Origin: Escherichia coli | Lineage (GTDB): Bacteria; Pseudomonadota; Gammaproteobacteria; Enterobacterales; Enterobacteriaceae | Assembly: GCF_003334815.1 (NCBI RefSeq) | Contig: NZ_QOWO01000012.1 | Direction: 5' to 3' (one strand) | Length of the DNA stretch: 64,000 nt | Shown here: positions 43,128 through 44,179 of the stretch, in pieces | Numbering within the stretch: position 1 is the first letter of the stretch | Layout of the letters: each line of letters begins with the position of its first letter | The notes under the pieces: generated by a model | Told to the model about the DNA's origin: nothing | Database searches by the model: none | The model's input: the letters and a program-made list of their open reading frames with translations, nothing else | Program-made: the position numbers and the translations under genes

Positions 43128-44087
43128 GTGGCACAACGAGATTATGTACGCCGCAGCCAACCGGCACCTTCGCGGCGAAAAAAGAGCACCTCACGGAAAA
43201 AGCAACGAAATCTGCCTGCGGTTTCTCCCGCTATGGTCGCTATTGCTGCCGCCGTTCTTGTGACCTTTATCGGTGGTCTGTACTTCATTACGCATCACAA
43301 GAAAGAAGAGTCCGAGACGCTGCAAAGCCAGAAAGTGACCGGAAACGGACTACCACCAAAACCAGAAGAACGCTGGCGCTACATTAAAGAGCTGGAAAGT
43401 CGCCAGCCGGGAGTGCGTGCGCCCACAGAACCTTCTGCCGGTGGTGAAGTGAAAACGCCGGAGCAACTGACACCAGAACAACGTCAGCTTCTTGAACAAA
43501 TGCAGGCTGATATGCGCCAGCAGCCAACGCAGCTGGTTGAAGTTCCGTGGAATGAACAGACGCCGGAACAGCGTCAGCAAACGCTACAGCGCCAACGTCA
43601 GGCGCAGCAATTAGCGGAACAGCAACGCCTGGCTCAGCAGTCGCGTACGACTGAACAAAGCTGGCAGCAGCAGACGCGTACGTCGCAAGCCGCACCGGTA
43701 CAGGCGCAACCGCGCCAGTCTAAACCGGCTTCTTCTCAGCAGCCGTACCAGGATCTGCTGCAAACTCCTGCGCACACGACTGCGCAGTCGAAGCCGCAGC
43801 AAGCTGCGCCAGTTGCTCGTGCCGCTGACGCGCCAAAACCGACGGCGGAGAAAAAAGACGAACGCCGCTGGATGGTGCAGTGCGGTTCGTTCAGAGGCGC
43901 GGAACAGGCAGAGACGGTACGTGCTCAGCTGGCGTTCGAAGGCTTTGACTCGAAAATCACCACCAACAATGGCTGGAATCGTGTGGTCATTGGCCCGGTG
44001 AAAGGCAAAGAGAACGCAGACAGCACCCTCAATCGGTTGAAGATGGCGGGTCATACAAACTGCATTCGGCTCGCCGCCGGGGGTTGA
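43128..44087 (+). CDS. ftsN: Cell division protein FtsN
   Basis: 319-aa ORF with GTG start; single TM helix, Gln/Pro-rich linker, C-terminal SPOR domain. Confidence 0.93.
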   Translation: MAQRDYVRRSQPAPSRRKKSTSRKKQRNLPAVSPAMVAIAAAVLVTFIGGLYFITHHKKEESETLQSQKVTGNGLPPKPEERWRYIKELESRQPGVRAPTEPSAGGEVKTPEQLTPEQRQLLEQMQADMRQQPTQLVEVPWNEQTPEQRQQTLQRQRQAQQLAEQQRLAQQSRTTEQSWQQQTRTSQAAPVQAQPRQSKPASSQQPYQDLLQTPAHTTAQSKPQQAAPVARAADAPKPTAEKKDERRWMVQCGSFRGAEQAETVRAQLAFEGFDSKITTNNGWNRVVIGPVKGKENADSTLNRLKMAGHTNCIRLAAGG

Positions 44088-44111
44088 AACCCTCAAAATC
44101 CCCCCCATCTA
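44084..44111 (+). promoter_or_regulatory. Sigma-32 heat-shock promoter of hslVU
   Basis: TTGAAA (44084..44089), 13-nt spacer, CCCCATCT (44103..44110); the -35 overlaps the ftsN stop codon. Confidence 0.8.
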
Positions 44112-44179
44112 TAATTGCATTATGCCCCGTACTTTTGTACGGGGTTTGTACTCTGTATTCGTAACCAAGGGGTCAGCTC

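Follow-up and report, generated by a model that had tools for sequence, protein, structure and literature searches.

The gap between ftsN and hslV of Escherichia coli holds, with a probability of about 0.9, the RpoH (sigma-32) promoter of the hslVU (clpQY) operon, followed by a leader stem-loop that stabilises the message. Others have shown, with this very sequence, that the promoter depends on RpoH and is induced by heat, that the -10 element is required, and that the stem is needed and a swapped stem rescues its loss; the present analysis shows the identity with a curated Rfam family, the strong covariation and the fixed spacing from the -10 element across the Enterobacterales. As the promoter is found in the literature of 1993, the role of the hairpin in that of 2009, and the family in Rfam, the element is already known; it is correct but ordinary and carries little weight as a discovery. 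The hslVU promoter is packed so closely against the end of ftsN that its -35 hexamer holds the ftsN stop codon, RpoH-driven transcription begins at about 44119, and a G+C-rich stem-loop of 8-9 bp forms 6-7 nt into the RNA, where it lifts the level and the half-life of the hslV message, presumably by blocking the access or the scanning of RNase E from the 5' end.

The window, which is the whole analysed stretch of 64,000 nucleotides, is E. coli chromosomal DNA with the gene order cytR-ftsN-hslV-hslU-menA, in which promoter and leader belong to hslV and hslU (44180..46051). The gap between ftsN and hslV measures 92 nt. Positions 44050-44200 are identical to MG1655, the coordinate of which equals 4166467 minus the window position (the map was verified). 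A 501-nt query matches many E. coli chromosomes with 100% identity and was recovered from all of 5426 complete genomes (5426 of 5426), where it carries the annotation ftsN/hslV. Over the 141 nt surrounding the site, an identity of 99% or more is reached by 5274 of these 5426 complete E. coli genomes; within the species the ftsN-hslV intergenic region is essentially invariant. The features discussed below are collected in Table 1.

Table 1. Features in and around the ftsN-hslV intergenic region (window coordinates).
Feature	Position	Strand	Basis and remarks
cytR	end at 43036		upstream of ftsN
ftsN coding sequence	43128..44087	+	ORF list; RefSeq annotation of identical E. coli DNA
sigma-32 -35 element TTGAAA	44084..44089	+	sequence; conserved as GGGGGTTGAAA across Enterobacterales; RpoH dependence published (PMC2681174)
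Seven-C run	44100..44106	+	bridges spacer and -10 element; mutational hot spot in heat-adaptation experiments
sigma-32 -10 element CCCCATCT	44103..44110	+	sequence; C-to-T mutant CCTCATCT without heat induction (PMC2681174)
hslV-hslU transcription start (an A)	44119	+	SMRT-Cappable-seq operon 4120362-4122348, reverse strand, b3932|b3931 (PMC6131387, supplementary file 3)
Antisense RNA 3' end	44120	-	Term-seq, MG1655 4122347, + strand (Adams et al. 2021, PMC7815308, supplementary file 1)
Leader stem-loop	44124..44145	+	fold; Rfam RF02401 consensus; covariation; published mutants
Rfam RF02401 ClpQY_promoter match	44125..44182	+	63.6 bits (gathering score 42); E ~1e-13; full model 1-57
T-rich tail TTTGTACT	44145..44152	+	weak; the only terminator-like feature; not called by terminator scan
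hslV Shine-Dalgarno AAGGGG	44167..44172	+	7 nt before GTG 44180; conserved AGGGGTCTGCTCGTG block
hslV	44180-44710	+	GTG start; ORF and RefSeq annotation
hslU	44720-46051	+	ORF and RefSeq annotation; menA next

The original prediction had placed a sigma-32 promoter of hslVU across the end of ftsN, and in this it was right: the TGA stop of ftsN (44085-44087) lies inside the TTGAAA hexamer, and the -10 element follows after a spacer of 13 nt (44090-44102), both as had been described. The sigma-32 consensus of Nonaka et al. 2006 is said to be TTGAAA and CCCCATnT separated by 13-14 nt, which is the arrangement found here (44084-89 and 44103-10), and a start a few nucleotides past the -10 element is found as well, with 44119 lying 9 nt beyond the end of CCCCATCT. 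The pattern TTGAAA-N12-15-CCCCAT matches once in the 64-kb window, where 0.04 matches are expected, the motif is present in 76 of the 81 sequences scanned, and CCC.A..T is invariant at the -10 element of a 48-sequence alignment. The function of the promoter has been published: lacZ fusions are heat-induced upon a shift from 30 to 42 C, their activity is lost or reduced in rpoH but not in rpoS mutants, and the C-to-T change in the -10 element reduces the activity and eliminates the heat induction (PMC2681174). Like the sigma-32 promoters of dnaK, groE and ibpA, the hslVU promoter is RpoH-dependent and heat-induced, and its -35 and -10 cores, set 13 nt apart, fit the consensus exactly; it differs from these in that its -35 element is embedded in the stop codon of an upstream essential gene and in that a perfect TATAAT overlaps its -10 region, 20 nt from TTGAAA.

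The overlap with ftsN is not a peculiarity of E. coli, as the TGA within TTGAAA ends an open reading frame of at least 100 codons in 68 of the 76 motif-bearing loci. The C terminus of FtsN is conserved as ...CI(R/P)L..GG-stop, in the window at 44073-44089 and at the equivalent place in 68 related loci. Because the codons GGG GGT TGA are the conserved GGGGGTTGAAA, the last residues of FtsN and the promoter's -35 region constrain each other across the Enterobacterales. Five loci have no match to the strict sigma-32 pattern. Three of them are from Photobacterium, where CTTGAAA ... CCCCAGAT and a short stem of 5 bp take its place; another is from Pectobacterium, and the fifth is from the endosymbiont Gullanella, in which neither a promoter nor a stem can be recognised in the A+T-rich region upstream of hslV.

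The run of seven C that reaches from the spacer into the -10 element has been a repeated target in heat-adaptation experiments: a 1-bp deletion in it, reported at hslV/ftsN -74/+19, which is 44106, arose in two heat-rescued populations (PMC7750951), and a 2-bp deletion in the same run is found in the heat-evolved BM28 strains (PMC10044804). The TATAAT at 44110-44115 is a perfect sigma-70 -10 hexamer, and as it lies 20 nt past TTGAAA, the loss of two or three C would make a sigma-70 promoter with a spacer of 18 or 17 nt and would weaken the sigma-32 promoter. In the sequence as it stands, a sigma-70 scan of both strands from 42900 to 46300 gave no sigma-70 promoter-like site.

Where the message begins is set by two sources that differ by 10 nt. 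The hslV-hslU unit 4120362-4122348 appears in two SMRT-Cappable-seq data tables (PMC6131387), and its start at MG1655 4122348, which is window position 44119, gives a leader of 61 nt with AUUAUG before the stem, i.e. five unpaired nucleotides (AUUAU) if the closing G-U pair stacked on the first C-G pair is counted to the stem and six without it. The older start has been mapped "71 bp upstream" of the GTG codon, which is 44109 (PMC2681174); this position is part of the -10 octamer itself, an odd geometry for a start, and would leave 15 unpaired nucleotides. The exact length of the 5' overhang is uncertain given this disagreement, and it matters, as a leader of 71 or of 61 nt changes the distance of the stem from the 5' end and hence which decay mechanism the stem can block. 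Among the entries listed in the start-site table of Kim et al. 2012 (PMC3415461) there is no match to hslV, ftsN or the coordinate. Both starts are located upstream of the hairpin, so that an hslV start downstream of it, by which the hairpin would have become purely an ftsN terminator, does not apply.

The hairpin lies exactly to the base where it had been predicted. Its arms are CCCCGTAC (44125-44132) and GTACGGGG (44137-44144), separated by the loop TTTT (44133-44136) and followed by TTTG (44145-44148), and the stem consists of eight perfect pairs, six of them G-C, plus a closing G-U pair of 44124 with 44145. The fold of the 71-nt leader has an energy of -21.8 kcal/mol (z = -2.5), and that of the hairpin alone is -14.5 kcal/mol, or -16.5 kcal/mol if the closing G-U pair is included. 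The leader matches RF02401 far above the gathering score; the consensus of this family is the same 8-bp hairpin (44125-44144), followed by an unstructured leader that ends at the GUG of 44180-82. The family reaches its gathering score in 9 of 20 related loci. Other Rfam matches (snoZ185, anti-hemB) were dismissed as far below threshold. The element in the window is the same as the stem-loop of the clpQY 5' untranslated region (Lien, Yu, Liou and Wu 2009, Open Microbiol J 3:29) that RF02401 represents, and there is no structural difference between them, only the quoted leader of 71 nt against the 61 nt from cap-based long reads.

A perfect 8-bp stem is not improbable in itself, as the window has 27 raw matches where Markov simulation yields about 6, and the case for a function therefore rests on comparison and experiment. 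For the comparison, 80 loci were fetched via the HslV protein, so that the selection was independent of the hairpin, which makes 81 sequences in total; a covariance model was built from 48 leaders, and the element was found in 72 of the 81 sources. On the alignment to this model, which leans towards the structure as it was fitted to its own model, 92.1% of the cells are paired, compared with 31-56% when the partners are slid, compensatory cells number 108 against 7-17 in the slid controls, and the covariation score was reached by none of 500 shuffles. Double-sided changes occur at 9 of 9 pairs among the 72 Enterobacterales loci. RNAalifold on an unfitted MAFFT alignment recovered this hairpin, each of its five predicted pairs having compensatory changes; neither this alignment nor the Rfam consensus contains a second conserved helix in the leader. 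The stems diverge between genera (CCCTGAGC/GCTCAGGG, CTCCGCGC/GCGCGGAG) and are longer in Serratia, Yersinia and Photorhabdus, and already a sister lineage of Escherichia has a compensatory U-A to C-G change. The core stem starts 14 nt past the -10 octamer in 55 of the 72 sequences, and the sequence in between varies. A leader alignment across the Enterobacteriaceae has also been made by Lien et al. 2009 (PMC2681174).

As judged from these alignments, the cross-species covariation is decisive for regarding the hairpin as more than a chance product. A palindrome without function could be suspected from the roughly six perfect 8-bp stems per 64 kb of simulated sequence, and its likelihood is nevertheless negligible, since every pair has compensatory changes across 70 distinct sequences, the spacing from the -10 element is fixed, and mutants with loss and restoration of the function have been published (PMC2681174); covariation, spacing and mutants all contradict it.

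That the hairpin stabilises the hslVU message, as had also been proposed, is established by these published mutants, the primers of which match the sequence of the window (PMC2681174). Deletion of 40 bp of the leader reduces reporter activity and mRNA, and the delta-IR and delta-L constructs have reduced levels of mRNA and protein (PMC2681174). Under control of PBAD, deletion of the inverted repeat results in less ClpQ protein and mRNA and in a faster decay after addition of rifampicin (PMC2681174). The mRNA is also reduced in S-IR, in which one arm is replaced by T's and the stem is destroyed, and it is restored in R-IR, in which both arms are swapped and the stem is formed again (PMC2681174). 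The stem-loop thus raises the steady-state level and the half-life of the hslV message by its structure and not by its sequence, and the deletion of the hairpin that had been suggested as an experiment was essentially published in 2009, with a fall of mRNA level and half-life as its outcome (PMC2681174). Lien et al. saw no evident sites for RNase E or RNase III, and they also mention, both as data not shown, that there is no thermosensitive segment and no effect of Hfq (PMC2681174). The hairpin constructs were expressed from PBAD on plasmids with extra vector sequence at the 5' side, i.e. not with the native 5' end.

RppH and the 5' sensor of RNase E require just a few unpaired nucleotides. 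A stabiliser stem of the 5'-terminal type is said to have to begin no farther than about 2-4 nt from the 5' end, as attributed to Emory et al. 1992. The hslV hairpin resembles the stabilisers of the ompA and papA mRNAs (Emory, Bouvet and Belasco 1992; Bricker and Belasco 1999) in being 5'-proximal and in protecting by structure and not by sequence, but it differs in that 5-6 unpaired nucleotides precede the stem at the native start (44119) and in that the stem is still protective behind the vector-derived PBAD leader (PMC2681174). Because of these 5-6 free nucleotides and the function behind the PBAD leader, we favour a stem that acts as a barrier to the 5'-end-dependent access or scanning of RNase E rather than as a strictly terminal cap.

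The other part that had been considered for the hairpin is that of a terminator. It could be used twice, being also a leaky intrinsic terminator or a 3'-end-protecting structure for transcripts from the cytR and ftsN promoters, some of which would end just after ftsN while the rest would be read into hslVU. In line with this, SMRT-Cappable-seq reports both a cytR-ftsN unit ending after ftsN and a read-through unit ftsN-hslV-hslU (PMC6131387); the intergenic gap contains no other stable structure than the hairpin, which is G+C-rich, the stem energy of -14.5 is on a par with the -14.7 of the hslU terminator stem, three U follow directly, and five of the next eight bases are T. The site is like the leaky intrinsic terminators between adjacent operons (pervasive read-through, Yan et al. 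2018, PMC6131387) in having a G+C-rich stem with U residues between two co-oriented genes and in that both terminated and read-through transcripts are reported. Unlike in those, however, the U-tract has only three residues and is not conserved, and the curated Term-seq tables list no sense-strand 3' end here (PMC7815308), although tables with a threshold may pass over a gene of low expression; in the list of 3' ends in 5' untranslated regions and open reading frames there is likewise no entry for hslV (PMC7815308). The terminator scan does not call the hairpin, as the tail UUUGUACU consists of three U followed by mixed bases and goes uncalled when the G-U pair is counted to the stem, the five T of eight being obtained from the core stem. 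At most four T are found in the 8 nt past the stem in 47 of 72 orthologues, a C stands directly after the stem in most Enterobacteriaceae, and in the sister lineage of Escherichia the stem is kept by its compensatory change while UUUG has become CUUG. As the stem is conserved but the T-tract is not, it is the stem and its position that selection has kept, and not a terminator tail. A working terminator would moreover attenuate the transcripts from the hslV promoter, too. A minor leaky terminator role in E. coli, in addition to the stabilisation of the hslVU message, is thus a possibility to which we give somewhat less than even odds. The TERMITe supplements have no match for this site, and a Klebsiella RNA interactome paper mentions the genes just in passing.

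That the hairpin would be purely an ftsN terminator, with the hslV message starting downstream, is hardly conceivable. A stem-loop with TTT located 37 nt after the ftsN stop does look the part, but the start at 44119 and the older site further upstream are both on the 5' side of the stem, the hairpin is needed in cis on an hslV mRNA that is transcribed from a foreign promoter (PMC2681174), and again the conservation is that of the stem and not of the T-tract; the mapped start and the published mutants contradict this reading. Very unlikely, though not to the same degree, is a regulatory switch, i.e. an RNA thermometer, an attenuator or a target of an sRNA or of Hfq that tunes translation or elongation of hslVU with temperature. 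The location of a stem-loop in a heat-shock leader suggests such a switch, as do the 6-7 T of 8 that follow the stem in Tatumella, Rosenbergiella, some Pantoea, Pectobacterium, Hafnia and Proteus, which resembles a true terminator within the leader. Against it, the stem has no contact to the Shine-Dalgarno sequence, which is not part of any conserved helix in the Rfam consensus structure or by RNAalifold, and there is no alternative helix; a stem of -14.5 to -16.5 kcal/mol would not melt at 42 C; the data that Lien et al. mention on thermosensitivity and Hfq are negative (PMC2681174); and the curated Term-seq tables contain no premature 3' end for the leader of hslV (PMC7815308). Sequestration of the Shine-Dalgarno sequence was rejected, as the weak second helix of the single-sequence fold is not conserved.

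The T-rich tails were observed at eight loci, in which 6-7 of the 8 nt past the hairpin are T, some 30 nt before the hslV start (locus positions ~1440-1475), and which belong to the genera just named, Pantoea being represented by a MAG. These leaders look as if they had a canonical intrinsic terminator about 30 nt after the sigma-32 start. In Citrobacter, Enterobacter and Kluyvera, the tails have a C first and no T-tract.

An antisense RNA also ends at the palindrome, with its 3' end on the minus strand 5 nt past the same stem and 1 nt from the sense start. As the minus strand has no U-tract there (CAUAAUGC), exonuclease trimming to the stem or collision with a promoter complex is likelier than intrinsic termination. 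It is conceivable, but rather doubtful, that one palindrome serves three RNAs, being the known 5' stabiliser of hslVU, a leaky terminator for part of the cytR-ftsN and ftsN transcripts that depends on their start site, and the 3' end of the antisense RNA. If this were true, the genera with a stem and 6-7 T would have a genuine terminator about 30 nt past the heat-shock start, and this would be an unrecognised attenuator of hslVU.

At the other end of the operon, a canonical terminator is located 3' of hslU at 46080-46101, with GATGGGGCTGAAAGGCCCCATT followed by TTTATT. According to SMRT-Cappable-seq, it is read through into menA-rraA, and an internal start yields a unit that consists of hslU only.
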